From: Patescibacteria group bacterium
Lineage (GTDB): Bacteria; Krumholzibacteriota; Krumholzibacteriia; Krumholzibacteriales; Krumholzibacteriaceae
Assembly: GCA_035529435.1 (NCBI GenBank)
Contig: DATKWS010000154.1
Coordinates: forward strand, 22,064-86,063
Reading direction: 5' to 3'
DNA length: 64,000 nucleotides
Shown: positions 27,218-51,195 of the stretch, one piece after another
How the letters are laid out: each line of letters begins with the position of its first letter
Position numbering within the stretch: position 1 is the first letter of the stretch
The notes under the pieces: model-generated
Seen by the model: only the letters and a program-made list of their open reading frames with translations
Told to the model about the DNA's origin: nothing
Database searches by the model: none
Translations under genes and position numbers: made by a program

Positions 27218-27478
27218 CGATCAGCTCCTCGTCATGTCCATCGTACGACACCGCACGTAAATCGCGGCCATACCCTCGGTATCCCGGCCGATGCACGTGA
27301 TTCGCCCGGCGGCCCGGAGGTCCCATGCCGTTGCGCCGGGTGCCGAACGTGACTACTTGCTTTTTTGGACCATATAAATATCACGATGTGCAGGCAAGGG
27401 ATTTCCTGCACCGGAGTATGCTGCGGACGCCGCCCGTATCCCCCCGAAAGCGCACGGCCGTCGATTCTTGAGCCGCCG

Positions 27479-27895
27479 CTACTGGAGCCCGCTGCCCACC
27501 GTTGCGGGGATGAGCCTGCCGAACTTCACGCCCTTCATCGCGATCAGCTCATCGGAGATCCGCTGAACGCGGTCCGGTCGTCCGCGCAATACCTTGGCCT
27601 CGAGGCAATTGTCATGATCGAGGTGCAGGTGGAGTGTGGCGATGATCTCACCGCCCCAATCGTGCTCCTTGTCGAGAAGGCGCGATGACAGCTCGCGCCG
27701 GTGGTGGTCGAATACAATCACGAGCACACCGATCACTTCCCCCGTCGCCTCGCTCCATTCTTCCTGCACCAGCGCACCGCGAACGAGATCGCGTATCGCC
27801 TCGGAGCGATTCGGGTACCGCCGCCGTTTCACTATGCGGTCGAGCCTTCCGAGCAGTTCGCCGTCCATCGAAACACCGAATCGTGTCGTTTTCAT
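27479..27895 (-). CDS. nikR: nickel-responsive regulator NikR (ribbon-helix-helix + ACT-like metal-binding domain)
   Basis: N-terminal RHH (FGVSMDGELLGRLDRIV). C-terminal HxH…C nickel-site pattern (HLHLDHDNCLE). Confidence 0.75.
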   Translation of the reverse strand: MKTTRFGVSMDGELLGRLDRIVKRRRYPNRSEAIRDLVRGALVQEEWSEATGEVIGVLVIVFDHHRRELSSRLLDKEHDWGGEIIATLHLHLDHDNCLEAKVLRGRPDRVQRISDELIAMKGVKFGRLIPATVGSGLQ

Positions 27896-27970
27896 AGGCC
27901 GGATTCCTCCATTTTCGTCCCTGTCACGGCAGTTGCGCCCGTGCCGGACATCGCACCCGGCGGTTTCCCG

Positions 27971-29611
27971 TCACCCGCCGTCTTTTTCGGTATAATGCGA
28001 ATGACGGAATGCGGCCGCCGCCGTCCGGTGCGCCGTCCGGTGCGCATGTATGAGCCCCGTCCGCTCGAGAATTTCATGATTTTCCAGCACCTCTGCAACC
28101 GGACCGGAGGCTGCGATGGTCCGGTCGGGCCCCAGGATGACGGCCTTCTCCCCGATATGCCTGGCGAGGAGGAGATCCTGCGTCGCGATGACGAGTGTCT
28201 TTCGCCGTTCGGAGAGTTCGGACAGGAGGTCGATCAGGGCGCCCTCCGTCGCCGGGTCGAGGCTTGCCGTCGGTTCATCCATCAGGTAGATCTCGGGATC
28301 GACCGTCAGGATGGATCCGATGGCGACGCGTTTCTTCTCGCCGCCGCTCAACCGGTACGGATAACGGTCGCCGAGGGCGTCTATGCCGAGCAGCTTCATC
28401 GCGTCTTCCACCACGCGCTCGAGCGCCTCGCCGCTCAAGCCCTTCTGAATCGGACCGAACGCGAGCTCGTCCCACACCGTCGGTGAGAAACACTGTATGT
28501 CGGGATTCTGGAAAACGAGCCCGACACTGCTCCGGAAAAACCGTCTGAATTCTTTCGCACGCAGGCGCTCCTCCGTGACGGCCCCGCCGAATGCGTCGAC
28601 CTCGCCGCTCTGAGGGAAGAGGAGTCCGTCGAGTATCCGCAGGAGCGTCGATTTGCCCGAACCGTTGGGACCGAGTATGACCGTACAGGTCCCCGCGTAT
28701 ATGCGCAGGGCATCGATCCGAATGCCGGGAGTGCCGTCGGGGTATGCATAGAAGACGTTCCGCAGCTCGAATACCCGGTCCACGCCGGGGTCCCCGCCCC
28801 GTTCAACCCGGTCCCCGCCGGTCCCCGCGCCGCCCGGTTCATGCCGCTCCGGACCGCTCCGCACGTCCGTACGCTCCGGACCGGCTGGTAGAGATGAACC
28901 ATCCACCGGATCGCTTCCTCGGGAAACCATTGCCAACTGCACTCCCTCGGCGAGGTGCAGGGACCGCACGAAGAGATACCCGGTACTTCGAAAGAGAAAG
29001 GAGAGCTCCATACGGTACGGGAGCGTCGAGATAACCCGGCTCGTGCGTGCCGCCAGCAGCTCGACGAGTGTTCTCAGCAGGAGGAGAAAATACCGGTATG
29101 ATATGGAGAGGAGCGACACGAGCACGTGAGGTGCCCGCAATTGCCCGAGTGCGCGTGTGACGATGTTCCACCGGGTGGTGAGTATCAGGAGCAGTGCGAA
29201 CGATACACTCGTCGAGACGCGCATGATGAGATAGACCGCGGTGGTGAGCCCCTCCCGCGTGATCGTGACGGGACCCACGGCGGCGGCCCGTTCCCCCGGC
29301 GTCATGAAGAGCGCCGGAATCGCGATCACTCCGGTAAAGAGTGGGATGAAAATCCATACCCGCTTGATGAAATCGAACGCTCCGATGCCGGAAAGGCAGG
29401 CCAACACCAGCGAAGCGGCGTACAGTACGAGCAGCACGGGGATGCTCCTCGTCAGGGAGCAGAGGAGCACGAGCAGCGGCAGGGCCACAATCTTGATCCG
29501 CGCGTCGATCGATTGCAGCAATCCGCCCGTACGTGCCCAGCGCTCGTTCGCCACCGTGTTTTCGATAAGGCGCGCGACTGCGGCGATATTCTTCTCAAGA
29601 GTGAGTGCCAT
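27971..29611 (-). CDS. ECF-transporter fusion: CbiQ/NikQ transmembrane (T) component fused to CbiO/NikO ATPase
   Basis: N-terminal about 270 aa polytopic CbiQ-like region. Acidic/Gly-rich linker. ABC ATPase with Walker A GPNGSGKST, signature LSGGEKKRV and Walker B IYLMDEP. No stop codon between the two halves. Confidence 0.7.
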   Translation of the reverse strand: MALTLEKNIAAVARLIENTVANERWARTGGLLQSIDARIKIVALPLLVLLCSLTRSIPVLLVLYAASLVLACLSGIGAFDFIKRVWIFIPLFTGVIAIPALFMTPGERAAAVGPVTITREGLTTAVYLIMRVSTSVSFALLLILTTRWNIVTRALGQLRAPHVLVSLLSISYRYFLLLLRTLVELLAARTSRVISTLPYRMELSFLFRSTGYLFVRSLHLAEGVQLAMVSRGSDPVDGSSLPAGPERTDVRSGPERHEPGGAGTGGDRVERGGDPGVDRVFELRNVFYAYPDGTPGIRIDALRIYAGTCTVILGPNGSGKSTLLRILDGLLFPQSGEVDAFGGAVTEERLRAKEFRRFFRSSVGLVFQNPDIQCFSPTVWDELAFGPIQKGLSGEALERVVEDAMKLLGIDALGDRYPYRLSGGEKKRVAIGSILTVDPEIYLMDEPTASLDPATEGALIDLLSELSERRKTLVIATQDLLLARHIGEKAVILGPDRTIAASGPVAEVLENHEILERTGLIHAHRTAHRTAAAAFRHSHYTEKDGG

Positions 29612-29915
29612 GCTTGACAAGCCTGCCGATGCCCAGTACCGCCGCGGTGGTGAGCCCCGCCCCGACGAGAGCGGAAAGGATCGTTCCCACTCCCGTCCGC
29701 CAGCCCTCCGCGGCGAGGCCCGGGAACTCGTACTCGGGGAAGGGCGCACTGGGGCGTTTTTTCTGCGCGTTACGCATTCCATCGGGTGCGAAGCCCACGA
29801 TCTCCGTGACGGAGTTGAGGTCCCATTCCCCCCAAGCGCTTCCGATCACGAGAATGCCGATCGGTGTCAGAATCGCCAGTACGATCAATGCAATCCAACC
29901 CCTGGTGTATCTCAT
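29595..29915 (-). CDS. CbiN/NikN small membrane component of Ni/Co ECF transporter
   Basis: About 106 aa with two TM helices (MRYTRGWIALIVLAILTPIGILVIGSAWGEW…). Its ATG overlaps the cbiM TGA (TGATG). Confidence 0.6.
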   Translation of the reverse strand: MRYTRGWIALIVLAILTPIGILVIGSAWGEWDLNSVTEIVGFAPDGMRNAQKKRPSAPFPEYEFPGLAAEGWRTGVGTILSALVGAGLTTAAVLGIGRLVKHGTHS

Positions 29916-30628
29916 CACGCTCCTCCCCCGCCACCGTCCGGCCCTGCGGACCGGGCGCCGGCGCTGAAGAGCTCGTGGTGGTAGCGTCCGAGAAAGGCGA
30001 CCACTCCTCCGGTGATGACGGCCTCCACCGCTCCGCCGGCGGTGAGATGCGGGATCATCATTGCCGGCACCGTCACCGAGACGTTGAAGGGGCAATAGAG
30101 AGGGGTTCCGTCGGGCAGGTGGTGGAACAGCGGCTGTAATCCCAGCTCCAGCGCAACGGCGAGTGCCGCCGCGTTCAGTCCGATATAGGCGCCGATCGCC
30201 GCCGCGGCGGTGAATCGGCGGCTTCCCGGTTCGGAGGAGCCGGCTACCGCCCTGAATACGAGGTACCCCACGAGCGGCATGACGAAGCCCATGTTGAAGA
30301 CGTTTGCGCCGAGTGCGAGGATACCGCCGTCACCGAAAAAGAGCGCCTGTATGGCGAGGGTCAGCGTGATCGCTAACAGGGCAGGCCAGGGGCCGACGAG
30401 GATCGCGATCAGAACTCCCCCGGCCGCGTGTCCGGTCGTTCCCCCGGGCAACGGGATATTGAACATCATGATGAGGAAGGAGAATGCCGCCAGGATGGCG
30501 AGCAACGGTATGTGCGCCTGCCCCAGGCGCGTGCGGACGGCGCGGAGAGACTGCCACCAGAGGGGGGCCGTCAAAAGATAAAATATCCCCGATGTATGCG
30601 GTGAAATGTACCCGTCGGGTATGTGCAT
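29915..30628 (-). CDS. CbiM/NikM substrate-specific component of Ni/Co ECF transporter
   Basis: Starts with the canonical MHIPDGY N-terminus required for metal coordination. Polytopic. Confidence 0.8.
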   Translation of the reverse strand: MHIPDGYISPHTSGIFYLLTAPLWWQSLRAVRTRLGQAHIPLLAILAAFSFLIMMFNIPLPGGTTGHAAGGVLIAILVGPWPALLAITLTLAIQALFFGDGGILALGANVFNMGFVMPLVGYLVFRAVAGSSEPGSRRFTAAAAIGAYIGLNAAALAVALELGLQPLFHHLPDGTPLYCPFNVSVTVPAMMIPHLTAGGAVEAVITGGVVAFLGRYHHELFSAGARSAGPDGGGGGA

Positions 30629-30791
30629 GAATCCTTCCCACAATCGTGTTATTTTTTATATTTTCGTAACACAACAAATCTATACGATGGCTCCGGTGCG
30701 GTCAAATAGTTTTCTGCTCCGGGAATATCGGATTGCCACGGGCGTTACAGCGTATTACCATGTAGTAGAGTACGTTACGGGAGAATCGAGC

Positions 30792-31508
30792 ATGAGCGGG
30801 ATCGATCGGACACGGAGCCGTCCACAAAGTGGAAACGGGCTTTTCATCAAAGCCTACCGGGCCCTGCGGCGCGTGTACGGCCCGCAGCACTGGTGGCCCG
30901 TGACACCGCCCGGTGAATTCGAGCCGGCCTACACCGGCGGGCCGTGCTCACCGGAACAGGTTTTCGAGGTAGCGGCGGGTGCCGTTCTCACGCAGAACAC
31001 CGCCTGGAAGAATGCGGCCAAGGCCATCGTGAACCTGAACAGGGCCGGTGTTCTCGATCCCGCGGCTATCCGGGACATCGATGAGAGGGAGCTGGCGCAT
31101 CTCGTGCGTCCATCCGGTTATTACAACCAGAAGGCGCGGCGGTTGAAGACGCTGGCCGATTATTTCATCGGCGCGGATGTGGTCACGAGGGAGGCGCTAC
31201 TCCGACTCGGAGGGGTGGGCCCGGAAACAGCCGATTCGATAATGCTTTATGCATTCGGCAGGCCCTATTTCGTCGTCGACGCCTACACGCGGAGAATATT
31301 CGGACGGATGGGAGCGATCGACGGTGGATCATCATACGAGAGCATCAGGGAGACGTTCGAGAGGAGTCTGCCGCGCCGGATTTCCCTGTACCGGGAGTTT
31401 CACGCGCTGATCGTCGAGCATGGCAAACGGAGCTGTCGGCGAAATCCCCTCTGTGCGGCGTGCGTCATCGCCGACCTCTGCGGATGGAAGAACGGAGAGG
31501 CGCTTTGA
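30792..31508 (+). CDS. endonuclease III-like HhH-GPD domain protein (COG2231 type)
   Basis: Helix-hairpin-helix LGGVGPETADSIMLYAFGRPYFVVDAYTRRIF with catalytic Asp. No [4Fe-4S] cysteine cluster. Confidence 0.6.
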   Translation: MSGIDRTRSRPQSGNGLFIKAYRALRRVYGPQHWWPVTPPGEFEPAYTGGPCSPEQVFEVAAGAVLTQNTAWKNAAKAIVNLNRAGVLDPAAIRDIDERELAHLVRPSGYYNQKARRLKTLADYFIGADVVTREALLRLGGVGPETADSIMLYAFGRPYFVVDAYTRRIFGRMGAIDGGSSYESIRETFERSLPRRISLYREFHALIVEHGKRSCRRNPLCAACVIADLCGWKNGEAL

Positions 31509-32432: not shown

Positions 32433-33050
32433 GTGATAGCGCAGGGTTGGAAATGTTCGCAATGCGGTTTCATTACCGTTGACCTCTTCCCCCCCGATAA
32501 CTGCCCGAAATGCAACGCCGACCGATCGGCATTCGAAACGGAACATGCGGTCAAGTTTTCCCAGGATGAGCGCGATGGCGTATTCAATGCCTGCTGGAGC
32601 GTCAGCTACGGGCTGTACCTCGTCAGCTCCATAGACGGCGACAAGATGAACGGGCAGATATGCAACACGCTCTTTCAGATCACCAGCGATCCTCCCCGCA
32701 TCGCCATCGGGATCAACCACGGAAACCTCACGCACGAGTACATAGAGAAAAGCGGTGTTTTTGCTGCATCCGTCCTCGGTGAGAACGACCACAGGATCGT
32801 CCGGCGCTTCGGGTACCGGTCCGGCCGGGATTTCGACAAATTCAAGGGTGTTCCCCTATTCAAGGGGAAGACGGGATGTCCGATATACGAGAAGGCCGTT
32901 GCGTACATCGAGTGCACCATTCTCAGGGACAAGACGACCGACGCCGGCACGCACAGCATCTTCATCGGGGATATCGTGAACGGCGCCCGCCTCACGGAGG
33001 ACGTTCCGATGACGTACGCGTTCTACCACGAAACCAAGGATAAGATTTGA
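32433..33050 (+). CDS. rubredoxin-like zinc-ribbon fused to flavin-reductase-like (FMN-binding split-barrel) domain
   Basis: N-terminal WKCSQCGF…CPKC (two CxxC). Following domain matches flavin reductase-like fold (PRIAIGINHGNLTHEYIEKSGVFAASV…). GTG start with AGGAAG RBS. Confidence 0.65.
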   Translation: MIAQGWKCSQCGFITVDLFPPDNCPKCNADRSAFETEHAVKFSQDERDGVFNACWSVSYGLYLVSSIDGDKMNGQICNTLFQITSDPPRIAIGINHGNLTHEYIEKSGVFAASVLGENDHRIVRRFGYRSGRDFDKFKGVPLFKGKTGCPIYEKAVAYIECTILRDKTTDAGTHSIFIGDIVNGARLTEDVPMTYAFYHETKDKI

Positions 33051-33168
33051 TCGGGACACCACCGGTATCACTTCGGCGCGGCGTTCCCGGGTCCGGTGTT
33101 TCGGATATAATTCCCTTCACAAACGGATCGTATTGTGTTTTCCTTTCAATTCGGGAAGGCATCGAAAC

Positions 33169-34167
33169 GTGAAGAGCGAAGATCAAAAGAAGCAGATACT
33201 GGATATACTCTCCGGCGCGATCCTGCGGGAGACGGATGCGTTCAATTACTATCACCGGAACGCCGATGGTCCGTCGGCACCGCCCGCCGTACGCGGGCTC
33301 TTCTCGCGGCTGGCGGAGGAGGAGCGGGTCCACCGTCACCTGCTGATCAACGAATTTCTCTCGGTGAAGCGCGGGTGGCGCGAGGAGGAGGGGGAAGGGA
33401 TAAAACACATTCCCGCATTCAGGGTGCCCGACAAGATCCCCTTCCTTCCCCTTCGGACCGGGCCGGATCTCGATGCCGCCGCGGTCTGCCTGCCGGGGAG
33501 GCTCGTGGGTGGTGACAACGTATTCTCCGCGGTCGTGCGCGATCATGCCGGCAACGCGACGGGTACATTCCTCGTTCTGTATGATGCGATGGGGCACAGT
33601 TTCGAGACGACGGAAACAAACGCGCTTGCCGCCAGGATTGTCGGCGAGCATTTCGAAGCATCGAGCACGGCCCGTATGCAGCAGGAGCTCCTCGCTCCCG
33701 ATCTGGTGGCGAAACTGCTGAACGAGAAACTGCATGAGAAGTTCGACGGGCAGGGTGTTTTTATCACACTGTTCTGTGCGACGTTCGATACACGGAGTGC
33801 CACGATGTCCTATACCTGCGGCGGGCACGAGCCGCCATTCGTCGTTCGCGCGGACGGGCGGGTGGAATCGCTCCTCAACACGCAGCTCATCGTCGGGATC
33901 GATCCCGATTTCGACTATACCGCCGATGCGGTGCCGTTCGGGGAAGGGGACATTCTCTGCATCTTCACCGACGGGATTGTGGAGGCGAGAAACGAGGAGG
34001 GTGATTTCTTCGGCCGCAGCGGTGTGCAGGCGGTGCTTGCGCGGAGCGGTCCTGCAACGCCCCGCCAACTGATAGAGGACCTGCTCGAGGGGGTTCGGAA
34101 TCACTCGGCGGCCGAACTGATACAGGATGAGATTTCAATAGTTGTCGTCAGATCGAAAGGAGCGTAG
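33169..34167 (+). CDS. rubrerythrin/ferritin-like domain fused to PP2C-type (SpoIIE/RsbU) serine phosphatase
   Basis: N-terminal helix pair with E…ExxH (LRETDAFNYYH / EEERVHRH). C-terminal PP2C motifs GDNVFSAV, DAMGHSFE, CGGHEPP and FTDGIVEARN. Confidence 0.65.
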   Translation: MKSEDQKKQILDILSGAILRETDAFNYYHRNADGPSAPPAVRGLFSRLAEEERVHRHLLINEFLSVKRGWREEEGEGIKHIPAFRVPDKIPFLPLRTGPDLDAAAVCLPGRLVGGDNVFSAVVRDHAGNATGTFLVLYDAMGHSFETTETNALAARIVGEHFEASSTARMQQELLAPDLVAKLLNEKLHEKFDGQGVFITLFCATFDTRSATMSYTCGGHEPPFVVRADGRVESLLNTQLIVGIDPDFDYTADAVPFGEGDILCIFTDGIVEARNEEGDFFGRSGVQAVLARSGPATPRQLIEDLLEGVRNHSAAELIQDEISIVVVRSKGA

Positions 34168-35075: not shown

Positions 35076-36770
35076 TTGCGACGCAGTAGTCACCCGATGA
35101 GCCGAAACGATCGGGGGCTGCCGGATCGTGCTCGCTGCACGGGGCGGGAGACCACGGACGTGACAACGAATGAAGGAAATACCGCAGCGCCGCGACCGCA
35201 CGCTGAACGCAGGCGGTTTCTCGTTTCGATGGGTATCCTCGCGGGCGGCGCCCTCGTCGTGCGGGCCGCGTTCCTCGGGTGCCGCATGGTTCTCAGTGGT
35301 GACGAGGTTCATTATGCGGAATCGCTCCACCGGTTCATGGAGGGGAGGTTCACAGAGGGATTCTCCGATTACTGGTCGTTCTTCTATCCCTTCCTCGCAC
35401 TTCCGTTCGGAAAGATTTACGGGAGCGCAGAGCCGGCCCTGCGGCTGCTGTCCGTAATCTGCGGCGGCGCGGTCGTCGTGCCGTGCATGCTCATCGCGCG
35501 ACGCCTGTGGGGTGATCGCGCGGCCCTCCTGGCGGGAATCCTCATCGCGCTCCACCCAAGTCTCATACAATTTTCGACCGCCGCGATGACCGAGTCCCTC
35601 TCCGCGCTCCTTGTCTCGACCGCACTCTACCTGCTCATCCGGTTCCTGCAGGACGGCGGCAGATGGTTTTTTGTCGCCGGCGGTGTGGTGCTGGGGCTCG
35701 CTTACCTGACGCGCCAGGAGGCGCAGTTCATTCTCGCCCTCGTTGTTGTTGTCGTATTACTCGCCGGCGCGGGGACGGTTCCCCGGGGAAAGCGTCTTGT
35801 ACGCGCGGCGGTGCTGGCGGCGTTTTTCATAGTAACGATTCTCCCGAGCGTATTCTTGCTGCGGGCGAAGACGGGCCGGTGGACGGGGGGATCGAAGGCA
35901 TCGGTCAATCTCAGCTCACCGCTCATCTGGGAGGACGGCATCGAACGGGAACGGTACGTCTACGGCCTGAACGAATCCGGCACGGGGCGCCGTATCGATG
36001 AGATCGGTAGGGAGAGCGTCCTTGCAACGCTCTGGCGACAGCGGGACGCGGTGGTCTCCCGGTACTTCCCGAACCTCACGAGGGGAGTCGCCCTTCTGCC
36101 GAACCTCCTCGCCAGTCCGTTTCTCCTGCTCCTCGTGCCCCTCGGGCTGTTCGGGCGGGGATGGCGGCGGGGGGATCGCATGATTGAATTCGTGCTCCTC
36201 CTCGTCGGCATTCTTCCGTTCGTTCTCTATGCCGTTTTCCGGATCGATTTCCGGTACCTCGTTCCGTTTCTGCCCGTGTACCTCCTGTGGGGCGCACGGG
36301 GGTGTGGTGTGCTCGTCTCGTGGCTGCGTGAGAATGTATCACCGCGACCGATTCTATCCGTGATCACCCTGTTCGTTATCCTGGCGAGCCTCGTTCCATT
36401 CACGGTACGGCGCTATGCTCTTCTGGCCGCGAGCCAGCCGGTCGAGTACCGTGAGATCGGACGGTGGATCAGGGACAACGGCGGCGGGGGCGCCATGATT
36501 CTCGCGCCGTCGGGTTGGTCGGTCGGGTACTACGCGGGGAATCCGCTCGCCACCTTTATACCATGGACCGATCCGGACGGGCTCATCCGCTATGCCCGGT
36601 ACCACCGGTTCGAGTATCTCGTGCTCGGTACCGCGTATATCGAACACGCACGGCCGGCGCTCGAGCCGCTCGTCCGTGAGCCTGAGTACCCGGGATTCGA
36701 ATTGATACATACCTTTACAGACCGGTCCGGCGGAGAGATATTACTCTACCGCCTCGGCACCACCTCCTGA
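35076..36770 (+). CDS. GT39/ArnT-like (PMT family) membrane glycosyltransferase
   Basis: Polytopic. N-terminal extracytoplasmic-loop DE motif (SGDEVHYAE) typical of the GT-C PMT/ArnT family. Confidence 0.6.
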   Translation: MRRSSHPMSRNDRGLPDRARCTGRETTDVTTNEGNTAAPRPHAERRRFLVSMGILAGGALVVRAAFLGCRMVLSGDEVHYAESLHRFMEGRFTEGFSDYWSFFYPFLALPFGKIYGSAEPALRLLSVICGGAVVVPCMLIARRLWGDRAALLAGILIALHPSLIQFSTAAMTESLSALLVSTALYLLIRFLQDGGRWFFVAGGVVLGLAYLTRQEAQFILALVVVVVLLAGAGTVPRGKRLVRAAVLAAFFIVTILPSVFLLRAKTGRWTGGSKASVNLSSPLIWEDGIERERYVYGLNESGTGRRIDEIGRESVLATLWRQRDAVVSRYFPNLTRGVALLPNLLASPFLLLLVPLGLFGRGWRRGDRMIEFVLLLVGILPFVLYAVFRIDFRYLVPFLPVYLLWGARGCGVLVSWLRENVSPRPILSVITLFVILASLVPFTVRRYALLAASQPVEYREIGRWIRDNGGGGAMILAPSGWSVGYYAGNPLATFIPWTDPDGLIRYARYHRFEYLVLGTAYIEHARPALEPLVREPEYPGFELIHTFTDRSGGEILLYRLGTTS

Positions 36771-37160: not shown

Positions 37161-38714
37161 ATGCAAAACCTGAGTTTCAAGATACAGATCGCCATGCTTG
37201 TCAGCCTGCTTGTTGCGGGGCTCGTGGCCGCATTTTCCTGGACGGTTGCCACGCGGGAACGGAGCATGATTCTATCGGAGGTTCTCCACCGCGTGGTTCT
37301 GCAGGGCCGGAACCTGGCGCTCAGCTCGGCAAAACCGCTTTTACACGAGGATCCCGAGTTTGAATTGCATCCACTCGTTGCCAAGGTAATCGAATACGAT
37401 CACGATGTTGTTTCGATCGTCGTGGTCGATCACAATAGCGTTATCAAGGGCCACCGGGACGTTGCGGCTATTGACAAGGTATACATACCGTTAAAAGAGC
37501 TCAGGCCCATAGATCAGGTCACGCACCAGTCGGCCGGCGAGACATTCAGGGAAAACGAGAGTTTCATCGAGGTGTCCGTTCCCGTCACCGATCGGAGGGA
37601 GAGAATCGGGACGGTATACCTTCAATACTCCAAACGGGGGATTCGCGAGGCCATGGATACCATCAAGGGGAGGATACTGCGCATCGGCCTTTTTGCGCTC
37701 GCCGTGGGTGTACTGCTCTCCCTTCTGCTCGCCTTCCATATTACGAGTCCCATCAGTAAACTGACACGGGGCGCCGAATCGATCGGCCGCGGGAATCTCG
37801 ACACGAGGATCAAGATCAGGTCGGTGAAGGAGATTCAGGCACTCGCGCACACCTTCAACGAGATGGCCAGGAGTCTCGAGGAGAGTCACCGCGCGATGCT
37901 CGACAAGGAGAGGATGGAGAAGGAGCTCGAGATCGCGCGCGAGATCCAGGAGACGCTCCTGCCGGCGCATCTGCCGCATCTGCGCAATTTCGAAATTGAT
38001 GCATACTACCATCCCGCCTCCCAGGTCGGTGGTGACTATTTCGATCTCATACGGGTCGACGAGCGGCACCTCATGATCGTTGTCGGCGATGTCGCGGGCA
38101 AGGGCGTTCCCGGTCTCGTCATCATGGCGATGGCGAGAATTCTCGTGCGGCATTTGGCGCTCAAGGGGGAGCGGCCGTCGAAACTTCTGCGTCATCTCAA
38201 TGTGCTCCTGAAGCGCGATATGAAACGGAACCTCTTCCTGACTCTTTTCTGCGGTTTACTCGATACCCACGATGGCACACTCCGATTCGCCAGCGCGGCC
38301 CACATGCCGCTCATCGTGTATCACAGCAACGAACAGATGGTACGCATGATGAGTACGAAGGCCAGGCCGGTCGGGATCTTTTCGGACGAGGTGTTTTCGC
38401 AGGGGCTCGAGGAATATGTCGTTTGTCTCCAACCCGGTGATCTGCTTCTCCAATTCACCGACGGTCTCAACGAGATGCGCGACCCTGCCGGGAATGAGTT
38501 CGGGATAGAGAGGATCATGCAGACGGCATACGACGAGGCGAAGGGTGGCGCCCGGCACCTGATCGCGGAGATAAAGCGGAGACTCGGGGAATTTCGTCAT
38601 GGCGAACTGCAGAGCGACGATCTCACGCTCCTCGCGGTGAGCGCGCTGCCCGCCGGCATGGAGAGGGTAAACGAGGAACGTATGGAGATCCTCGACAGGG
38701 TGGTATTCGATTGA
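37161..38714 (+). CDS. membrane sensor-HAMP-PP2C serine phosphatase (RsbU/SpoIIE family)
   Basis: TM1, about 150-aa periplasmic domain, TM2, HAMP, then PP2C motifs GGDYFD, VGDVAGKG and FTDGLNE. Confidence 0.75.
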   Translation: MQNLSFKIQIAMLVSLLVAGLVAAFSWTVATRERSMILSEVLHRVVLQGRNLALSSAKPLLHEDPEFELHPLVAKVIEYDHDVVSIVVVDHNSVIKGHRDVAAIDKVYIPLKELRPIDQVTHQSAGETFRENESFIEVSVPVTDRRERIGTVYLQYSKRGIREAMDTIKGRILRIGLFALAVGVLLSLLLAFHITSPISKLTRGAESIGRGNLDTRIKIRSVKEIQALAHTFNEMARSLEESHRAMLDKERMEKELEIAREIQETLLPAHLPHLRNFEIDAYYHPASQVGGDYFDLIRVDERHLMIVVGDVAGKGVPGLVIMAMARILVRHLALKGERPSKLLRHLNVLLKRDMKRNLFLTLFCGLLDTHDGTLRFASAAHMPLIVYHSNEQMVRMMSTKARPVGIFSDEVFSQGLEEYVVCLQPGDLLLQFTDGLNEMRDPAGNEFGIERIMQTAYDEAKGGARHLIAEIKRRLGEFRHGELQSDDLTLLAVSALPAGMERVNEERMEILDRVVFD

Positions 38715-38738: not shown

Positions 38739-39848
38739 ATGAGGCTCGAAATGTTCGACAGGGAAACGATGACTGTCTGCGTGAGCTGCGCGGACCGGCA
38801 GGATTGGGATATCCTCGACAAGCTCTCCAGCCTCATCGCGGTCTCCTCGGATTGCGGATTCAACCGGATCATATTCGAGCCGCCGTCACGCCTGCCTCTG
38901 CCGGTCGGTATGGCGCTCGAGCAGCTTGCCCGCCGTAACGGGGTCATCCTTTCCGCCGCCGATGAAAGCGCCGCCGGGGAGGCGAAGGACGAGTTCGGTT
39001 TCGTCGTGGTGAGCAGGGAGTCCAGTTTTATCTGCCTCCGTGATTCGGGCGATGATATGCATTACCAGCTCTACCTCGAGGCCTGCGAGGAGAACGTCGA
39101 TCTCGGCGCGCGTCTCGCCTACCTGCTCGCAAACGTGCTCGGTTTCACGAGCCTCATCTCGTTCGAGATTCGTTTCAGCGTGTACGAGCTCCTCAACAAC
39201 ATTTTCGAGCACGGTCTCGAGCAGGGTGCCAGCCAGTGGGTCGAATTGATCATCGAGAAAAAGCGAGATAAGCTGTCGGTTTCGCTGGTCGACAAGGGAG
39301 TCGCGTTCGATCCGACAAGGGATGAGAAATTCAACCTGGCACGGTACCTGGAATCGGGCAAGAAACGGGGGCTCGGTCTCGTCATGACACGCAGGATAGC
39401 GGGGCGGATGCAGTACCATCGGGATGGGGAATTCAACAAGATCCATTTCGAGAAATCGGATTCATTCCCCGGAGGGACTCTCCGGGCCGTAAAGGAGGAG
39501 ACAATGGCACAGTTCATAGTCGGTGAACCGGTCCGCACGGAGGACGGTTCCTCCCTCATGGCGCTCGAGGGCGATCTCGATACGAAAGGCGCTCTTGTCA
39601 TGGAGGATCTGATGTCGCAGCTCCTCGACCAGAAGATGTTCCGCGTGATCTTCGATTTCGAAAAGGTACCGTTCGTGTCAAGCGCGGGAGTGGGAATTCT
39701 TCTCGGGATCGTATCCTCGCTCCGCGAGGAGGGTGGGGAGGTTACCCTGTTGAACGTTTCGCCGAAGGTGAAGTCGGTGTTCAGGCTTCTCAATCTCGAT
39801 GACTATTTCACCATCGCCGACTCACGGGATTCGTTTGTCGAATTCTGA
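38739..39848 (+). CDS. fusion of RsbW/SpoIIAB-type serine kinase (GHKL ATPase) with C-terminal STAS anti-sigma-antagonist domain
   Basis: Central HATPase_c N-box ELLNNIFEHG and G-box GLGLVMTRR. C-terminal STAS with the phospho-acceptor region FVSSAGVGILLG. N-terminal about 110 aa of unknown function. Confidence 0.6.
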   Translation: MRLEMFDRETMTVCVSCADRQDWDILDKLSSLIAVSSDCGFNRIIFEPPSRLPLPVGMALEQLARRNGVILSAADESAAGEAKDEFGFVVVSRESSFICLRDSGDDMHYQLYLEACEENVDLGARLAYLLANVLGFTSLISFEIRFSVYELLNNIFEHGLEQGASQWVELIIEKKRDKLSVSLVDKGVAFDPTRDEKFNLARYLESGKKRGLGLVMTRRIAGRMQYHRDGEFNKIHFEKSDSFPGGTLRAVKEETMAQFIVGEPVRTEDGSSLMALEGDLDTKGALVMEDLMSQLLDQKMFRVIFDFEKVPFVSSAGVGILLGIVSSLREEGGEVTLLNVSPKVKSVFRLLNLDDYFTIADSRDSFVEF

Positions 39849-39871: not shown

Positions 39872-41317
39872 ATGAGCAAGGCGCCGCCTGAACAGACGTG
39901 CCGCAGCGAACCTGATGTGAAACGGCTCGAGGAAAGTCTCGAGAAGCGGAATATCACATTCGAGGCGCTGTTCGGACTGTTCGAGAAGATCGGAACGACG
40001 CTGGACCTGGCAACGATCGTCCGGCTCTTCCTGCTCACCCTCATGGGACAACTCAGGTTGAAACGCATCGCCTTGTATCTTGCTTCCTCGGATGGAACGC
40101 GGTTCGTGATGCATCACGCGCTGGGTATCGGCCGGCAGGTGCTGCCGACGGCCTTCTGCGTGGAGCACACGCTCACGCGCTGGTTGCGGTCGGAAAAGGA
40201 CGCTCCGCATATAGACAGTTTCTTCAATGAGTACAAGGGCGAGGTGCCCGGGGAGACGGCCGGTTTTCTCGGGGAAATGGCCGGGCGAAGTTTCGCCTAT
40301 GCGTATCCCCTTACCGATCGGGATGAGTTGCTGGGAGCGGTGTTCTTCAGCGGGAAGGTGACGGGGGAGGGATTCTCACAATTCGACAACGAGCTGCTGC
40401 GGATGCTCGCCAAGGTTGCCACCATCACGATCAGGAATGCGGCACTCTACCGCTCGGCGGTGCAGTCCAAGCAGGAGCTCGAGAGGTTTTCACGGATCAA
40501 GAAGGAGTTCATCAACCACACCTCGCACGAGTTGCGGACGCCGATCACCGTTCTCAAGAGCGCACTCTGGTCGATCGAATCGGACGAGATCGATGAAGGC
40601 GTACTGATCGATATGTCCAAGGATGCCGTGCTCAGGATGCAGGACAAGATCGAACAACTGCTCTCGCTCAACGATATCGAATTGAACGCGACCGCATTCG
40701 ACCTCGCCCGGACCGATGTCTCGTCGCTGCTGGAGGAGTGCCTGCGCGAGATCATCCCCGAGCTCGAGGAGAAACAGATAACGGTCGATCTCGATGACCG
40801 CGCCCGTTACCGGGAGATCATGGTCGATGCCGCCAAGATGAAGCTCGTGCTGCGCGGTATCATCGATAACGCCGTCAATGCTGTCGAGAGGGGCGGCACC
40901 ATTTCGATCGTGACCGATGTCACGGATATCCCGCCGGGGGGCGGCGATGGGATCGAGATACCCGATTGGTCGACTGTCGCGGAGGGACCGCTTCCGTATT
41001 CCCCGTGTGATGCGGCGGACAACGAGCACGCAGGTACCGGCCCGTCACGGAACTTCACCGATTTTCATCCATCGAGCCAGGGATCGTTCCTCGTCATGCG
41101 CATGCGGGACGACGGCGTCGGTATACCGGCCGACGAGATCATGGCCGTTTCCGAGCCGTTCCGGCGGGCCTCGAATTCTCCCCTGAAAAACGTCAAGGGG
41201 CTCGGCATCGGTCTCTCCGTCGCGTTGAAGATCATCGCGGGACACGGCGGGCGGCTCTTTTGTAGAAGCGAAGAGGGAAGAGGGACGGAATTCTCTATCT
41301 GGCTGAACGCCGATTGA
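39872..41317 (+). CDS. cytoplasmic GAF-domain sensor histidine kinase (no cognate response regulator adjacent)
   Basis: GAF domain. HisKA H-box HTSHELRTPITVL. HATPase_c with an about 50-aa insertion before the G-boxes. Confidence 0.75.
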   Translation: MSKAPPEQTCRSEPDVKRLEESLEKRNITFEALFGLFEKIGTTLDLATIVRLFLLTLMGQLRLKRIALYLASSDGTRFVMHHALGIGRQVLPTAFCVEHTLTRWLRSEKDAPHIDSFFNEYKGEVPGETAGFLGEMAGRSFAYAYPLTDRDELLGAVFFSGKVTGEGFSQFDNELLRMLAKVATITIRNAALYRSAVQSKQELERFSRIKKEFINHTSHELRTPITVLKSALWSIESDEIDEGVLIDMSKDAVLRMQDKIEQLLSLNDIELNATAFDLARTDVSSLLEECLREIIPELEEKQITVDLDDRARYREIMVDAAKMKLVLRGIIDNAVNAVERGGTISIVTDVTDIPPGGGDGIEIPDWSTVAEGPLPYSPCDAADNEHAGTGPSRNFTDFHPSSQGSFLVMRMRDDGVGIPADEIMAVSEPFRRASNSPLKNVKGLGIGLSVALKIIAGHGGRLFCRSEEGRGTEFSIWLNAD

Positions 41318-41480
41318 TCGATGTCACGCTTGTCCGCGTGTCGATCCCCGAACATGTGTGAAGAAACGGGGCGTGCGGTGTTCCGAGCGCCCAAGCCGGT
41401 CCGCGCCTTTCGCTGCATAATGGAAAAGGCGGCCCCTCTCTTGTAGAGAGACCGCCCGTGTAACTGTATTGGCCGGTATG

Positions 41481-46119: not shown

Positions 46120-49068
46120 TTAAGGCGCTTGAGTGGGTGCACTCTGGTCTGATCGTGCGGCGCAACGTTCGACGCCGGGATCGAATCTTCCACAGCAGAT
46201 GAGGGGCGCCCATAAGTGAATATTATCAAAGGTATTACCGGAAGCACGGCTCTTCTCTATCATCTCTCTCTGCATGGCGCAGAGCGCCGCAGTGGCCGAT
46301 GACGCGCCGCCCCACAACTTTTCATAGAACGATGTTACGGCCCTCTCGGCGGCGGCATCCTCTATCGGCCACAGCGAACCGACTACCATGTGTGCGCCGG
46401 AGCGGACGAACGCCCCCGCCAGTCCCGAACCCGCCTGAGCGTACTGTGTGCCGCCCCCGACCGATTCGCACGCCGCAAGAAAGACGAGCCGAACATGCGA
46501 CAGATCGAGCCTCAGAATTTCTTGTTCATCGAGAAGAGCGCCCGAGAGCTCTCTCTCGCCGGTGATCTCCCCGGAAGGTGAGAGGAGGAGGGCCGTTTTT
46601 CCGCTGTGCAGGGGGTAGTGTATGGAGTGTGATGAGATGTGTACCAGGTCGGAACGCTCGATACGGGCGAGTAACGCCTGCCTGGTTGCCCCCGTCCCCT
46701 GGAGCACCGTGCCGTTCTCGAAGAATTGTTGCAGCCGGACAAGCTCCCTTCCGGCGTAATGGAGGGAATCGAGGCGGGGGTAGATCCTGCGCGCGAGATC
46801 GGGAATGACGGCATTGCCGACAATGAGCGGTGCCCGGAAACGCGGTGCGGCCGTCCCGCCGGATTCGCCGGGAGCAGCCACGGGTTCATACTGTGGATCG
46901 GCGGTGCCGGGCACCGCACGGGTGGTCTTCCCACTGCCGGTGTGCAGATCGAGCAGGCTGGGGGAGACGAATATCGTTTTGGATTCCAGGAGAAACCGGT
47001 CCGAGCCGCGAGCCGCCAGGGCGCCGAACGGCAGAAGACGGAGGACGCCGTCGGGGATAAAGCAGAGTATCTCGGCGGATTCGACGAGGGGCGCGAGCGG
47101 CTCGATCAGAAAGCCGTAGAGACGGGATGTAATCCCGGCGATACGGTCCCGGTTCAGGCCGGGTCCGGAATGTCGATCGCTGACGGACGGCCCGCACTGC
47201 TCGATGAACGCGCGCACCTCCCGGTCGAGCGTCACGCTCTCCACGGCGACGCACCGGTGCGTGGCGCCGTTCCTGTTCAACGCCACGAGTATCAACCGGT
47301 CCGGCGTGATCGTGGTTTGGACGATGAGGGCGCACTCCGGAATCCATGCCCGGTCCGCAATGCATGACCTGATGGAATCGTCGAGGGCCATGGATGGGAC
47401 GGACCGGCCGCAGGGATCAGCGTGCCGCGACCGCTCGGCCCAGAAGAGAACGGAATCGGCCCCATGCGATGTCTCGCTGTCGAGACGTATAAGGTCGTCA
47501 TAGATCGAATCGACCAGTTGCACGAGGAAGTGCCTGTTTTCCACGTGCGGTTTCCGCAACGATTCCTCCTCGAAGAGGGCAATGGCGCCTGCGAGAATCT
47601 TTCGGCCGTCGTTCCGGTTCCCCCGGCTGATCTTTGTTTTTCCGAGGAGCCGGCACGATTCGATTTGCTGCATCCAGTAATTTTCCTCGATCGCCAGGCG
47701 CACGGCCTCATCGAGGAGTTCCTCGGCCTGTCGGTAGCGATGCTGCTCGAAGTGGAGACGGGCCATCGCCGTCGTGTATTCGGCCACCCGGCGGTTCTCC
47801 CGAAGCCTGTGTGAGACGGCCAATGCACGTTCGTAACAGGAAAGTGCCTCCTCGGTCTTTCCCGCCGCCGCGTATGTATCGCCGAGCTGTTTCTCCAACT
47901 CGGCGATGTAGTGTTGATCGATGCCGCGCTGTGCGATCGACAGCGCTTTTTCCATTTTGGCGATCGCCTCGCCGAGGTTTCCCGCCGCGCGCTGGATACG
48001 GGAAAGGAGTGCGAGTCCCGATGCAAGGTACTGCTCCGTCGCGTGCGTAACGTAGATGCCGGTCTCGGGTGAGTCGCCGCTCAGCAGTTCCTCGGCGAGA
48101 AGCGTCGATTTCTCCGCGATGCCGGCGGCGCGGTTCGTTTCGCCGAAGCTGTTGAGTAACCGCGCGAGTGTGAGATTTCGAGAGATGGAGCAATTCGGAT
48201 CACAGGCGTGTTCGCTGCAGCGGCAGGCCTGCACGAGCAGGGATTCCGCTTCGACGGTGAATCCTTCGGTGCCGCGGAGGCAGCCGAGAAACGAGAGGGC
48301 CCGGCTCAGGTAGTAGGGGTCCCCGCATCGCTCTGCGTTCGAGAGGCTCAACCGGTAGGCCGCGTCCGCAGCCTCGAAATTCCCCTTCCGCACGTGATAG
48401 GCGCCGATCCGGCCCGAGATGTAACTCACACTTGGCAGGTGCTCGGTATCCCTGTACGTATCGAGGGCCTCCTCGAGGCAGCGCACCCCCTCGGGATCGC
48501 GCCCCGAGGCGAAATAGTAATCGGCGAGCGTTTCGAGCCCTTTGCCGGTCCACCGGCCGCATCCGGCGTCTTCAAGGGCCGCGATGCTCTCCCGGAGGAC
48601 CGTCTCTATCTCCTCGGCCCGGTCGAGCTCATCGTAGATTCTGTCATGGCACCGCACAATGCACCTGCGCGCCGCCGTGTACGCGCTCAATTTCCGCTCG
48701 TCATCGAGGAGGTCTGCGATCAGGAGGGAAAAGTGACGCGAGTGGAACGCCGAATCGAGCAGGTAGGCGATTTTCCCGGCCTCCACGGCGCAGTAGGCGA
48801 AGGTCCCCTGCGCACCGCGTTCATGCGCCTCGAGAAGAAGGTTGAATTGCGGGCTCAGTGCTTTCTCGCTCCAGATGAAGCCGCTTTTTTCGAAGAGTGC
48901 CACGGCGGCGTCATCGCTCAAGAGCTGGGCCGGAATCCCTGATACTTTCACGTACTCGAGGTTGTACATCTCGCCGTCTCCGGGCGCGGGGGCGAGGTGC
49001 ACCGCTGCGCTGATGATGATGTAGGCGAGCGCCGCGTACGCCGGGATATGATAGCGAACTGGTTTCAT
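46120..49068 (-). CDS. TPR-repeat protein with C-terminal CHAT (caspase-like) domain, membrane-anchored
   Basis: N-terminal TM helix. Many TPR-like repeats. C-terminal CHAT with the His/Cys dyad region (VHISSHSIHYP… and LVFLAACESVGG). Confidence 0.7.
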   Translation of the reverse strand: MKPVRYHIPAYAALAYIIISAAVHLAPAPGDGEMYNLEYVKVSGIPAQLLSDDAAVALFEKSGFIWSEKALSPQFNLLLEAHERGAQGTFAYCAVEAGKIAYLLDSAFHSRHFSLLIADLLDDERKLSAYTAARRCIVRCHDRIYDELDRAEEIETVLRESIAALEDAGCGRWTGKGLETLADYYFASGRDPEGVRCLEEALDTYRDTEHLPSVSYISGRIGAYHVRKGNFEAADAAYRLSLSNAERCGDPYYLSRALSFLGCLRGTEGFTVEAESLLVQACRCSEHACDPNCSISRNLTLARLLNSFGETNRAAGIAEKSTLLAEELLSGDSPETGIYVTHATEQYLASGLALLSRIQRAAGNLGEAIAKMEKALSIAQRGIDQHYIAELEKQLGDTYAAAGKTEEALSCYERALAVSHRLRENRRVAEYTTAMARLHFEQHRYRQAEELLDEAVRLAIEENYWMQQIESCRLLGKTKISRGNRNDGRKILAGAIALFEEESLRKPHVENRHFLVQLVDSIYDDLIRLDSETSHGADSVLFWAERSRHADPCGRSVPSMALDDSIRSCIADRAWIPECALIVQTTITPDRLILVALNRNGATHRCVAVESVTLDREVRAFIEQCGPSVSDRHSGPGLNRDRIAGITSRLYGFLIEPLAPLVESAEILCFIPDGVLRLLPFGALAARGSDRFLLESKTIFVSPSLLDLHTGSGKTTRAVPGTADPQYEPVAAPGESGGTAAPRFRAPLIVGNAVIPDLARRIYPRLDSLHYAGRELVRLQQFFENGTVLQGTGATRQALLARIERSDLVHISSHSIHYPLHSGKTALLLSPSGEITGERELSGALLDEQEILRLDLSHVRLVFLAACESVGGGTQYAQAGSGLAGAFVRSGAHMVVGSLWPIEDAAAERAVTSFYEKLWGGASSATAALCAMQREMIEKSRASGNTFDNIHLWAPLICCGRFDPGVERCAARSDQSAPTQAP

Positions 49069-49122
49069 GTCCGGTCCCCGTTCGCTGTATACTATAGCAG
49101 AAAAATACAATAATAATAATGA

Positions 49123-50040
49123 TTATTCTTTAATGAGAGCCCGCGCCTTCTCTGCCCATGGAGAGGTTGGATCCCTGTGGATGTACGATTCGAGATACCG
49201 GTTCGCCTCGGCCGTTTTCCCGGTCGCATGGTATATGATTCCGAGGTTGTAATAGGCCTCGGGAGGTACATGTTCACGTTGTGCAGCATCGATCAGGCGG
49301 ATCAGCGCCAGATCGGTTCTCCCCAGCCTGTACGATACCACAGCGAGATCGTTGTACGAGCGGCCGTCATCCGGCGCCAGGAGTGCGGCCCGTCGGTATG
49401 CCACTTCGGCCCTGTCGAACCGGTTCATGGCGAAATGCAGATGCCCGAGGAGCTGGTGGACTTCCGGATTGCGGGGATATCGCCGAATGAGCTGTTTCAG
49501 TGTGCCTTCGAGTCGTTCGAACCGGCGGTAATCACCCGCTGGATTTCCGCGAATCGCGACCGGTGTTCCGCCCGGTCTGTCCCGCCCGCCGGTGAGGCGC
49601 AGCTCGCCGATCTGTGCGGCTGATAGGACCGTGTCGATCTCCGTCCGGGCCGCCCGCAACTCGGGATCCCAGGCAGGGGAGAGCATGAGGAGGCTCAGAA
49701 CGAAGATCATTGCTATCGAAGTTGCTAGTGCAGAATAGGTTACGGTCGCATGCCACACCCGCGCAAGGAACGGCGCACGAGGAGGGGATTGGCGCGCCGC
49801 CTCAGTAATGCCGGATCTATCTTGCTGCGCGAGCGGTTCCCGCCGAGCGGTACACTGGAGGGCCGGATCCGGCAAGAAGGTCCCGGTCATCTCGTCGAGT
49901 TCCCCCTTTGCGTTGAACAGGGTTGCCAGGCAGCGGGGACAATCCGCAACATGCTTCTCGTACGCCCGGCGTTCCTCATCCGTGAGGCGCCTGTCGAGAT
50001 ATGCCGCGAGCCATTCCTCGTTATTACAGAATTCCTTCAT
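49123..50040 (-). CDS. anti-sigma factor (zf-HC2 N-terminus, single TM, periplasmic TPR domain)
   Basis: HxxxCxxC motif EKHVADCPRC at N-terminus. TM helix. TPR repeats. Immediately downstream of the ECF sigma factor. Confidence 0.6.
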   Translation of the reverse strand: MKEFCNNEEWLAAYLDRRLTDEERRAYEKHVADCPRCLATLFNAKGELDEMTGTFLPDPALQCTARREPLAQQDRSGITEAARQSPPRAPFLARVWHATVTYSALATSIAMIFVLSLLMLSPAWDPELRAARTEIDTVLSAAQIGELRLTGGRDRPGGTPVAIRGNPAGDYRRFERLEGTLKQLIRRYPRNPEVHQLLGHLHFAMNRFDRAEVAYRRAALLAPDDGRSYNDLAVVSYRLGRTDLALIRLIDAAQREHVPPEAYYNLGIIYHATGKTAEANRYLESYIHRDPTSPWAEKARALIKE

Positions 50041-50148
50041 GGCGATTATCGATTAACTCGTTTCCGAGCTTCCCCTTAGTTCATTATAGATTAGACGACA
50101 ATTTTTCGTGTTTCCGCGGTCTATTTGTTAATAGTATGTCAGTTTTTT

Positions 50149-51063
50149 TCAGTGAAACGGATGACCGTGGCCGTCCGGCGGTGTGTTCCACATATCTTCC
50201 CACGAGTGCAGTTCCATGAGGTTCTGCACGATTCCCTGGTAAATTTCCAGTGGTATGCCGGTCTCCAGCAACATCGCTTTCAGCTGCGCGAACAGCTTTT
50301 CGAGGCGCCGGTAGACCAATTGCTCGTTTCCGAGATCGAGCACCTCGCAGATCCTCCTGGCGCTCGCCTTGTGCTCGAACCGGAGCTGGAGAATGATCTG
50401 GTCGCGGTGCGGCAGATGGAGGAGGGCATCGCGGAGGTTCTGCAGCGCCTCGCGGAACAGATCGCTCTCCATGAGAATATCCGGAACCGGTTGCGTACGG
50501 CGTTCCAGTGGCACATGATCACTCGAGGTGTAAGCGGTGCCGTTCAGTGGAACGTTCCGTACTATTGAGGGAGCGAGCAGTTTCTCGATGAGCTTGCCGA
50601 GCCTGCGCTCCCGCGCCGTTTGGATTATGCGCTCCTCGCATTCGATCAGATCGAGGTAGGAGATATGATCTCCCATCTCGGCACGGAGCCCCGCGAGCAC
50701 CTCGTGGATCGGGAGTGCCTGGATGAATGCCAGCTTGAAGTAGCGCCGGTCGACCGGGAGAAGCCCTCCGAGGGCCGTCAGTACGTGCCGGATCCCCTTC
50801 GAGCTTCTGAAATAGTCCCGGCAGTGATTCACCGTTACGATGAACAGCCACGTCGAGAGCGTCGATCTGCCGTTGAACTTGGCGAGCTTTTCGTTTTTGA
50901 GCTTTTCCAGAAGCGAAACGTACAGGTCGCGCGCGATTTCATCGTCATTCACGTACCTGCCGATGATGCTCTGCATGTTATCGGTATAGGTTTCGATGAA
51001 CCGATGCCATGCCGCAATATCGCCGGCCATGATCTTTCTTACGAGATCGAGATCGACCTTCAT
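50149..51063 (-). CDS. ECF-type sigma-70 factor with long sigma2-sigma4 linker and C-terminal extension
   Basis: Region 2 STLSTWLFIVTVNHCRDYFR. Region 4 HTH ASARRICEVLDLGNEQLVYRRLEKLFAQLK. About 300 aa, versus about 190 for a minimal ECF sigma. Confidence 0.6.
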   Translation of the reverse strand: MKVDLDLVRKIMAGDIAAWHRFIETYTDNMQSIIGRYVNDDEIARDLYVSLLEKLKNEKLAKFNGRSTLSTWLFIVTVNHCRDYFRSSKGIRHVLTALGGLLPVDRRYFKLAFIQALPIHEVLAGLRAEMGDHISYLDLIECEERIIQTARERRLGKLIEKLLAPSIVRNVPLNGTAYTSSDHVPLERRTQPVPDILMESDLFREALQNLRDALLHLPHRDQIILQLRFEHKASARRICEVLDLGNEQLVYRRLEKLFAQLKAMLLETGIPLEIYQGIVQNLMELHSWEDMWNTPPDGHGHPFH

Positions 51064-51195
51064 GCTATAATTATAATTGAAAATCGATGGATAGCAACCG
51101 ATAACCCCGGCCGGCGGCAAGGACACTACTCCGTGAGGAAACAGGTGCGCACCGGGAGTGCCGCTTCGCCGGCGGGACGATCTTGTGGTGTGGAT

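Follow-up and report, generated by a model that had tools for sequence, protein, structure and literature searches.

We analysed a 64,000-nucleotide stretch of contig DATKWS010000154.1 (assembly GCA_035529435.1; hereafter the window), in which the gene at 38739..39848 encodes a GHKL serine-kinase domain and a STAS domain in a single polypeptide. Judging from the sequence, we propose that this fusion protein is a self-contained partner-switching module, and we give this reading, as the best explanation of the whole, a probability of roughly 60%. The gene is the middle member of a conserved three-gene unit, comprising a HAMP-PP2C membrane phosphatase, the kinase-STAS fusion and a GAF histidine kinase, which occurs mainly in metagenome-assembled genomes (MAGs) of Candidatus Krumholzibacteriota. 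The fusion of the two domains is not itself new, being common and widespread and already having an experimental precedent in Mycobacterium tuberculosis Rv1364c; specific to this locus are a lineage-restricted protein family, its N-terminal domain, which has no assignment, and a histidine kinase that is its invariant neighbour.

Domain architecture of the fusion protein

The gene is an uninterrupted ATG-to-stop open reading frame (ORF) of 369 amino acids (aa) on the plus strand, and its G+C content at codon positions 1, 2 and 3 (0.60, 0.36 and 0.75) is typical for genes in this window of about 60% G+C. Its parts are the following.

38739..39053, plus strand, family-specific N-terminal region, aa 1 to about 105 (AlphaFold2 model; no Pfam match)
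39054..39464, plus strand, GHKL (Bergerat-fold, HATPase_c_2) serine-kinase domain, about aa 106-242 (Pfam, Foldseek, phmmer to RsbW 6m36_A)
39186..39215, plus strand, N-box ELLNNIFEHG, aa 150-159 (phmmer, 6m36_A)
39288..39311, plus strand, G1-box region VDKGVAFD (phmmer, 6m36_A)
39369..39395, plus strand, G2 box GLGLVMTRR, aa 211-219 (motif match, RsbW alignment)
39465..39536, plus strand, flexible interdomain linker, about aa 243-266
39537..39830, plus strand, STAS domain of the anti-sigma-factor-antagonist type, aa 267-364 (Pfam, NCBIfam, PDB sequence matches, Foldseek)
39672..39695, plus strand, STAS loop FVSSAGVG, aa 312-319 (motif match)
39681..39683, plus strand, codon of S315, the predicted phospho-acceptor (aligned with SpoIIAA, family-invariant)

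A scan with profile hidden Markov models placed both domains above their curated cutoffs: Pfam HATPase_c_2 (PF13581) matched aa 134-237 (E 5.2e-13; score 49.6 bits, cutoff 27.4) and Pfam STAS (PF01740) matched aa 267-364 (E 1.3e-15; score 57.5 bits, cutoff 22.6). The NCBIfam model TIGR00377, which describes the anti-sigma-factor antagonist superfamily, scored 64.2 bits against a cutoff of 53.45. The start of the kinase domain was placed at about aa 106-113 from the Pfam profile coordinates and from alignments with shorter fusions described below.

From the family alignment, AlphaFold2 gave a model with a predicted local distance difference test score (pLDDT) of 77. When this model was compared with known structures using Foldseek, the middle domain matched SpoIIAB, RsbW and UsfX (probability 1.0, target-normalised TM scores 0.75-0.85), and the C-terminal domain matched SpoIIAA, RsbV and TM1442 (probability 1.0, 0.72-0.90, with the maximum of 0.90 to RsbV). 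Sequence matches of the fused STAS domain in the PDB were to these same three proteins, and it was closer to SpoIIAA and RsbV (E 1e-7) than to RsbS (E 0.06), the RsbS and RsbR matches together ranging from E 0.06 to 0.8. The linker is predicted to be disordered at aa 243-257, where pLDDT fell below 50, and its sequence and length differ among family members in the family alignment.

By these profile and alignment matches, the protein is assigned to the GHKL/HATPase_c_2 serine-kinase superfamily and its C-terminal part to the SpoIIAA/RsbV-type STAS superfamily. The original prediction, made from the sequence alone, had called the kinase 'RsbW-type'; this label is valid at the superfamily level and fails at the equivalog level, the RsbW/SpoIIAB equivalog models (NCBIfam NF003144 and TIGR01925) giving 20.2 and 16.4 bits where 145 and 135, respectively, would be needed.

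When about 5.8 billion proteins were searched, 89 homologue clusters with 36-99% identity were recovered, all of about 365 aa and nearly all carrying both domains in precomputed annotation. That a frameshift or an assembly artefact had joined two genes is scarcely credible and was rejected: the ORF is single and intact with a third-position G+C content of 0.75, the 89 clusters come from many independent assemblies with equal length and architecture, and at least 29 genome loci carry a single gene. Two separate ORFs, which would have spoken for this explanation, were not revealed.

Catalytic motifs and the predicted acceptor serine

Conservation was assessed in an alignment of 25 homologues with 34-80% identity to the query. 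In the N-box, E150 was invariant and N154 and H158 were nearly so; in the G1 region, D185 and P192 were invariant and G187 was nearly so; and in the G2 box, L212-G213-L214 was invariant and R210-G211 nearly so. Alignment by phmmer placed the N-box opposite SEACTNAVQHA, and the G1 region opposite VADEGDSFD, of RsbW (6m36_A).

In the STAS loop, S314-S315-A316-G317-x-G319 was invariant. Conservation of this kind indicates that the fusion is under selection. S315, the second serine of FVSSAGVG, aligned by phmmer with the first serine of Bacillus subtilis SpoIIAA FMDSSGLG, which is the phospho-acceptor Ser58; S315 is the equivalent of Ser58 and hence the predicted acceptor. The Pfam domains, the positions of the motifs and the invariance of S315 agree with what had been proposed at the outset, namely that the N- and G-boxes (ELLNNIFEHG, GLGLVMTRR) of a GHKL kinase are followed in-frame by a STAS domain that keeps its phosphorylatable serine.

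A conserved three-gene unit

The fusion gene is flanked on the same strand by a phosphatase gene and a histidine-kinase gene, and a hairpin follows.

37161..38714, plus strand, membrane sensor phosphatase of 517 aa (Pfam HAMP at aa 190-241, 5e-14; SpoIIE/PP2C at aa 301-494, 7e-43)
39872..41317, plus strand, cytoplasmic GAF-HisKA-HATPase_c histidine kinase of 481 aa (Pfam)
41427..41457, no strand assigned, strong hairpin (13-bp stem), placed between the histidine-kinase gene and a convergent cyclophilin gene

Two hydrophobic segments read off the translation give the phosphatase a layout of a first transmembrane (TM) segment, an extracytoplasmic region of about 140 aa, a second TM segment, HAMP and PP2C; its homologue in locus L001 had a weak sCache_3_2 match. 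The phosphatase gene ends 24 nucleotides (nt) upstream of the fusion gene, and the histidine-kinase gene, which has a GGAGGA ribosome-binding site and encodes an intact H-box, starts 23 nt past the fusion stop codon, so that gaps within the unit are 23-24 nt. The hairpin probably marks the end of the operon, which contains no receiver-domain gene. In the histidine kinase, a Pro/Gly/Asp-rich insertion of about 55 residues (aa ~349-403) lies between the N-box and the G1-box of the ATP-binding domain and is visible as split Pfam and NCBIfam matches.

To examine gene order, proteins of the window were compared by tblastn with 40 related loci from GTDB species representatives. The organisms named among these loci are mostly Candidatus Krumholzibacteriota/Krumholzibacteriia MAGs, together with one Fermentibacteria and one Latescibacterota MAG; the sources of homologous proteins also name Eisenbacteria and a Bacteroidales MAG. 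The histidine-kinase gene lay directly downstream of the fusion gene in every distinct locus reaching that far (29 of 29), including the Latescibacterota locus, where identity has fallen to 25%, and this adjacency was kept where the phosphatase gene was missing. The HAMP-PP2C gene was found directly upstream in 19 loci. The cyclophilin, PhzF and S9 peptidase genes downstream were considered as further parts of the system and rejected: they are missing from L003, L016, L022 and L029, which retain the three-gene core, and their synteny in other loci was therefore taken as lineage-level gene order.

A proposed tethered partner switch and its possible output

We propose that the kinase domain would phosphorylate S315 either in its own chain or, in a dimer, in the other subunit, and that the upstream HAMP-PP2C phosphatase would strip this phosphate upon stimulation of its extracytoplasmic sensor; an extracytoplasmic or membrane signal would then be read out in the phosphorylation state. 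On the evidence of conserved motifs and gene order, we regard these two steps together as probable. The self-phosphorylation is a reasonable supposition, and it has been reported for Rv1364c, in which the two domains stand in equal order. The dephosphorylated protein would be 'closed', with its STAS domain docked on the kinase domain, and the phosphorylated protein would be 'open'. More speculatively, the open form would engage an output partner through its freed kinase domain, its N-terminal domain or both.

The adjacent GAF histidine kinase is the best candidate for this output because it is an invariant neighbour and the unit has no sigma factor linked to it. That the freed kinase domain, the N-terminal domain or both would contact it is nevertheless offered as a tentative suggestion. 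The full scheme, a one-protein partner switch targeting a two-component sensor, in which a phosphorylation state set by the HAMP-PP2C phosphatase, and perhaps also by a rubrerythrin-like PP2C encoded nearby, gates binding of the free kinase domain or of the novel N-terminal domain to the orphan histidine kinase, is doubtful as a whole. If true, Ser/Thr phospho-switching and His-Asp signalling would be directly coupled in Krumholzibacteriota and in related phyla.

The same architecture would also suit an anti-sigma factor with a tethered antagonist, whose kinase domain holds an alternative sigma factor encoded elsewhere, as has been proposed for Rv1364c and SigF, while the fused STAS domain competes for it in cis, the histidine kinase being either a separate input or just a syntenic neighbour. 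Structurally, the modelled kinase domain is closest to SpoIIAB, RsbW and UsfX, which are true anti-sigma factors; Rv1364c is reported to bind SigF (PMC7693655); and LvrC, in which an RsbW-like domain follows an N-terminal regulatory domain, has been read as an anti-sigma factor (PMC13269768). However, no sigma-factor gene belongs to the conserved unit, and no group-3 (SigB/SigF-type) sigma gene was present in the inspected loci; the window contains a single sigma gene, which is of the extracytoplasmic-function (ECF) type, lies about 10 kb away and has its own zf-HC2 anti-sigma factor. Together with the equivalog scores far under cutoff and a histidine-kinase adjacency that persists even without the phosphatase gene, these observations make a tethered anti-sigma factor unlikely.

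Phosphorylation might also proceed mainly in trans, on stand-alone STAS paralogues or on kinase-degenerate fusions, with the protein's own STAS domain serving as a docking, pseudo-substrate or oligomerisation element. Free STAS genes of this kind exist in genomes that carry the fusion, three MAGs hold two fusion-type loci each (L027/L029, L021/L030 and L020/L033), and one of these paralogues, P0084 in L027, has lost the N-box asparagine and kept the serine. In another lineage, a short fusion sits directly after a free STAS gene, and CapK phosphorylates the separate STAS protein CapS (PMC13373217). Mere docking, however, would not need the invariant acceptor serine and phospho-loop that the fused STAS domain retains; in addition, the inspected part of the window showed no free STAS gene, and tethering would give the fused STAS domain an overwhelming advantage in local concentration. 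We consider action mainly in trans quite improbable.

Several observations weigh against the self-contained partner switch that we prefer. The PP2C gene is absent beside the paralogous copies L020, L021, L024 and L027, all of which have enough upstream sequence to reveal it. The stand-alone STAS paralogues in fusion-carrying genomes (L036 and L034) have the FVSSAGVG loop and about 50% identity, and they could be the real or additional substrates. The N-box asparagine has been lost in two homologues that keep the STAS serine loop, P0084 and P0078 (ELLNRIVER and ELLDRMARN; Asn to Arg), so that not every family member can act by the proposed mechanism; P0084 (L027 10001-11104) has no upstream PP2C gene, and for P0078 (L025) the contig start is too near to tell. 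The histidine kinase is tied to the fusion by gene adjacency, and in the comparable stressosome module of Vibrio vulnificus, an interaction with the neighbouring sensor kinase could not be demonstrated (PMC9237108). As a separate observation, P0078 and P0084 are, from their motifs, probably pseudokinases and could be substrates for phosphorylation in trans.

Among the signalling devices of bacteria outside two-component systems, partner-switching modules are a major one. As a compact and strongly conserved unit of three genes, with kinase and substrate in one protein and a histidine kinase as its sole linked output candidate, the locus would be tractable for distinguishing cis from trans phosphorylation in tethered switches and for learning how such modules reach targets other than sigma factors, a question also raised by the Vibrio-type stressosome. 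It also opens a functional route to signalling in a phylum that is uncultured.

The N-terminal domain

The extra N-terminal domain of about 110 aa, noted from the start as having no assigned function, likewise escaped every comparison made here. No Pfam family matched aa 1 to ~110 of the fusion protein, and Pfam searches with the N-terminal domains of all 25 homologues gave scattered single matches only. A search for homologues with the N-terminal alignment alone returned none. The model of aa 1-118 (pLDDT 86) predicts a compact alpha/beta domain at aa 2-72 with the order strand-strand-helix-strand-helix-strand, followed by a low-confidence loop and a beta-hairpin at aa 88-102. The most conserved residues of the first ~110 aa in the 25-homologue alignment were C39, which is nearly invariant, and Y109.

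Two candidate identities were rejected. The order of strands and helices is superficially like that of a STAS core, but a degenerate second STAS domain found no support in profile comparison, where hhalign to STAS and kinase profiles gave at most 1.4% probability. A pseudo-receiver was likewise dismissed: Foldseek of the aa 1-118 model against the PDB gave a best E value of 0.03 and neither a CheY-like nor a STAS match.

Distribution of kinase-STAS fusions

The original prediction had implied that kinase and STAS domains are rarely fused, and this proved overstated. When 1.84 billion cluster representatives were searched with the family profile, 61 matched at E ≤ 1e-30 and 1765 at the looser limit of E ≤ 1e-10. 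Among the 150 matches listed, about 40 clusters of 244-293 aa covered profile positions ~105-365 in one stretch. From this coverage, these proteins of about 260 aa, representing at least 40 clusters, are classed as kinase-STAS fusions without the N-terminal domain; Pfam HATPase_c_2 and STAS were both found in each of the six that were checked. When nine unrelated short fusions were aligned with the query, the N-box glutamate and asparagine, the G1 aspartate, the G2 glycines and the acceptor serine were invariant.

Other arrangements also appeared among the matches listed, namely a REC-SpoIIE-HATPase_c_2-STAS protein (P0184), a VWA-...-HATPase_c_2-STAS protein (P0218) and giant partner-switch fusions of 1192-1511 aa (P0116, P0120 and P0145) that combine, in this order, HATPase_c_2, in some cases sCache, HAMP, SpoIIE, HTH and two or three STAS domains; those of 1.4-1.5 kaa read HATPase_c_2-sCache-HAMP-SpoIIE-HTH-STASx3. 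Source annotations of the fusions were generic only ('anti-anti-sigma factor', 'RsbW' or 'STAS domain-containing protein'), and our literature search found no paper on the short HATPase_c_2-STAS fusions or on this ~365-aa family.

Other genes around the unit

Further genes of the window that bear on signalling or on gene order are listed here.

32433..33050, plus strand, rubredoxin-like/flavin-reductase gene, preceding the soluble PP2C gene
33133..34167, plus strand, soluble PP2C with a rubrerythrin-like N-terminus (Pfam SpoIIE 8e-35, Rubrerythrin 4.6e-5)
35076..36770, plus strand, PMT_2/GT39-like membrane glycosyltransferase (Pfam), directly upstream of the operon
46120..49110, minus strand, TPR-CHAT protein of 996 aa
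49123..50040, minus strand, zf-HC2 anti-sigma factor with TPR repeats
50149..51126, minus strand, ECF-type sigma factor (Sigma70_r2)

The pair of flavin-reductase and rubrerythrin-like PP2C genes also stands upstream of a PMT_2/HAMP-PP2C/kinase-STAS/histidine-kinase cluster in L006, with 54-63% identity. The soluble phosphatase may provide a second, redox- or iron-sensing input, in the manner of RsbU and RsbP, its membership in the system being uncertain. In two related loci (L006 5455-7089 and L017 7151-8755) the operon is likewise preceded immediately by a PMT_2-like gene, and PMT-like membrane proteins also flank the stand-alone STAS paralogue of L036 (L036 10418-13191). These neighbours hint at a link to envelope glycosylation.

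What precedes the core varies among loci, being either a giant FlgD_ig protein with a TPR protein or, as in the window, the PMT_2 glycosyltransferase. In L001 (1-6364), L002 (1856-6405) and L003 (1-6418), the core is preceded by a giant protein of 880 to more than 3300 aa and a TPR protein of about 650 aa; the FlgD_ig matches of the giant protein are weak or faint and occur in two of these three loci, and both genes are absent from the window. In L027 (7362-9750), AbgT transporter and HhH-GPD glycosylase genes come directly before the fusion gene. In the window, Cbi transporter genes are interposed between the AbgT and HhH-GPD genes (25679..31508), and the ~7 kb between the HhH-GPD and fusion genes holds the flavin reductase, two PP2C genes and PMT_2. 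Compared in this way, the phosphatase genes look like variable add-ons to a core of fusion and histidine kinase. The cluster of ECF sigma, zf-HC2 and TPR-CHAT genes (46120..51126) is probably unrelated to the partner-switch unit.

Comparison with known partner-switching systems

With SpoIIAB/SpoIIAA and RsbW/RsbV, and their phosphatases SpoIIE, RsbU and RsbP, the unit shares the two folds, the kinase motifs, the phospho-serine loop and a PP2C phosphatase encoded alongside. In those systems, however, kinase and antagonist are separate proteins and a sigma gene is co-encoded, whereas here they are fused, the RsbW and SpoIIAB equivalog models are not reached, and gene content names no sigma factor or other defined target.

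V. vulnificus has a stressosome module of STAS proteins, the RsbT kinase and the RsbX PP2C phosphatase, which is encoded beside a two-component sensor kinase presumed to be its output (PMC9237108). The present unit resembles it in placing STAS, GHKL kinase and PP2C functions beside a sensor histidine kinase rather than a sigma factor, and differs in having one fused protein instead of separate RsbR, RsbS and RsbT in a large complex. No RsbR-like gene was found among the window ORFs and their Pfam matches, and as judged from sequence the locus does not belong to the RsbR/RsbS/RsbT stressosomes.

Two other proteins carry an RsbW-like domain in a multidomain chain. CapK (HTH-STAS-GHKL kinase) similarly fuses such a domain to STAS, but its STAS domain precedes the kinase and its target is the conserved STAS serine of a separate protein, CapS (PMC13373217). 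In LvrC the RsbW-like domain is joined to an N-terminal regulatory domain, which is a receiver, and there is no STAS domain (PMC13269768); the N-terminal domain of the present family has neither receiver nor STAS similarity. The ~260-aa HATPase_c_2-STAS proteins agree in domain order, linker length, catalytic motifs and acceptor serine, and differ in lacking the N-terminal domain, in their 20-25% identity and in their gene contexts.

Among the closest known systems is also Rv1364c, described as PAS-PP2C-GHKL kinase-STAS (PMC7693655, PMC9138534). It is reported to autophosphorylate and autodephosphorylate its antagonist (STAS) domain (PMC7693655, citing Greenstein 2009), with Ser600 as the phosphorylation site (PMC9138534). 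The sequence similarity is remote, and no Rv1364c chain was among the PDB sequence matches of the fusion protein. The PAS and PP2C domains are in-chain in Rv1364c, whereas the PP2C phosphatase here is a separate TM/HAMP membrane protein; the N-terminal domain of the Krumholzibacteriota protein, about 105 aa long, is unrelated to Rv1364c, and the protein is linked to a GAF histidine kinase instead of a sigma factor. What the two have in common is the order of kinase then STAS in one chain and a PP2C partner activity.

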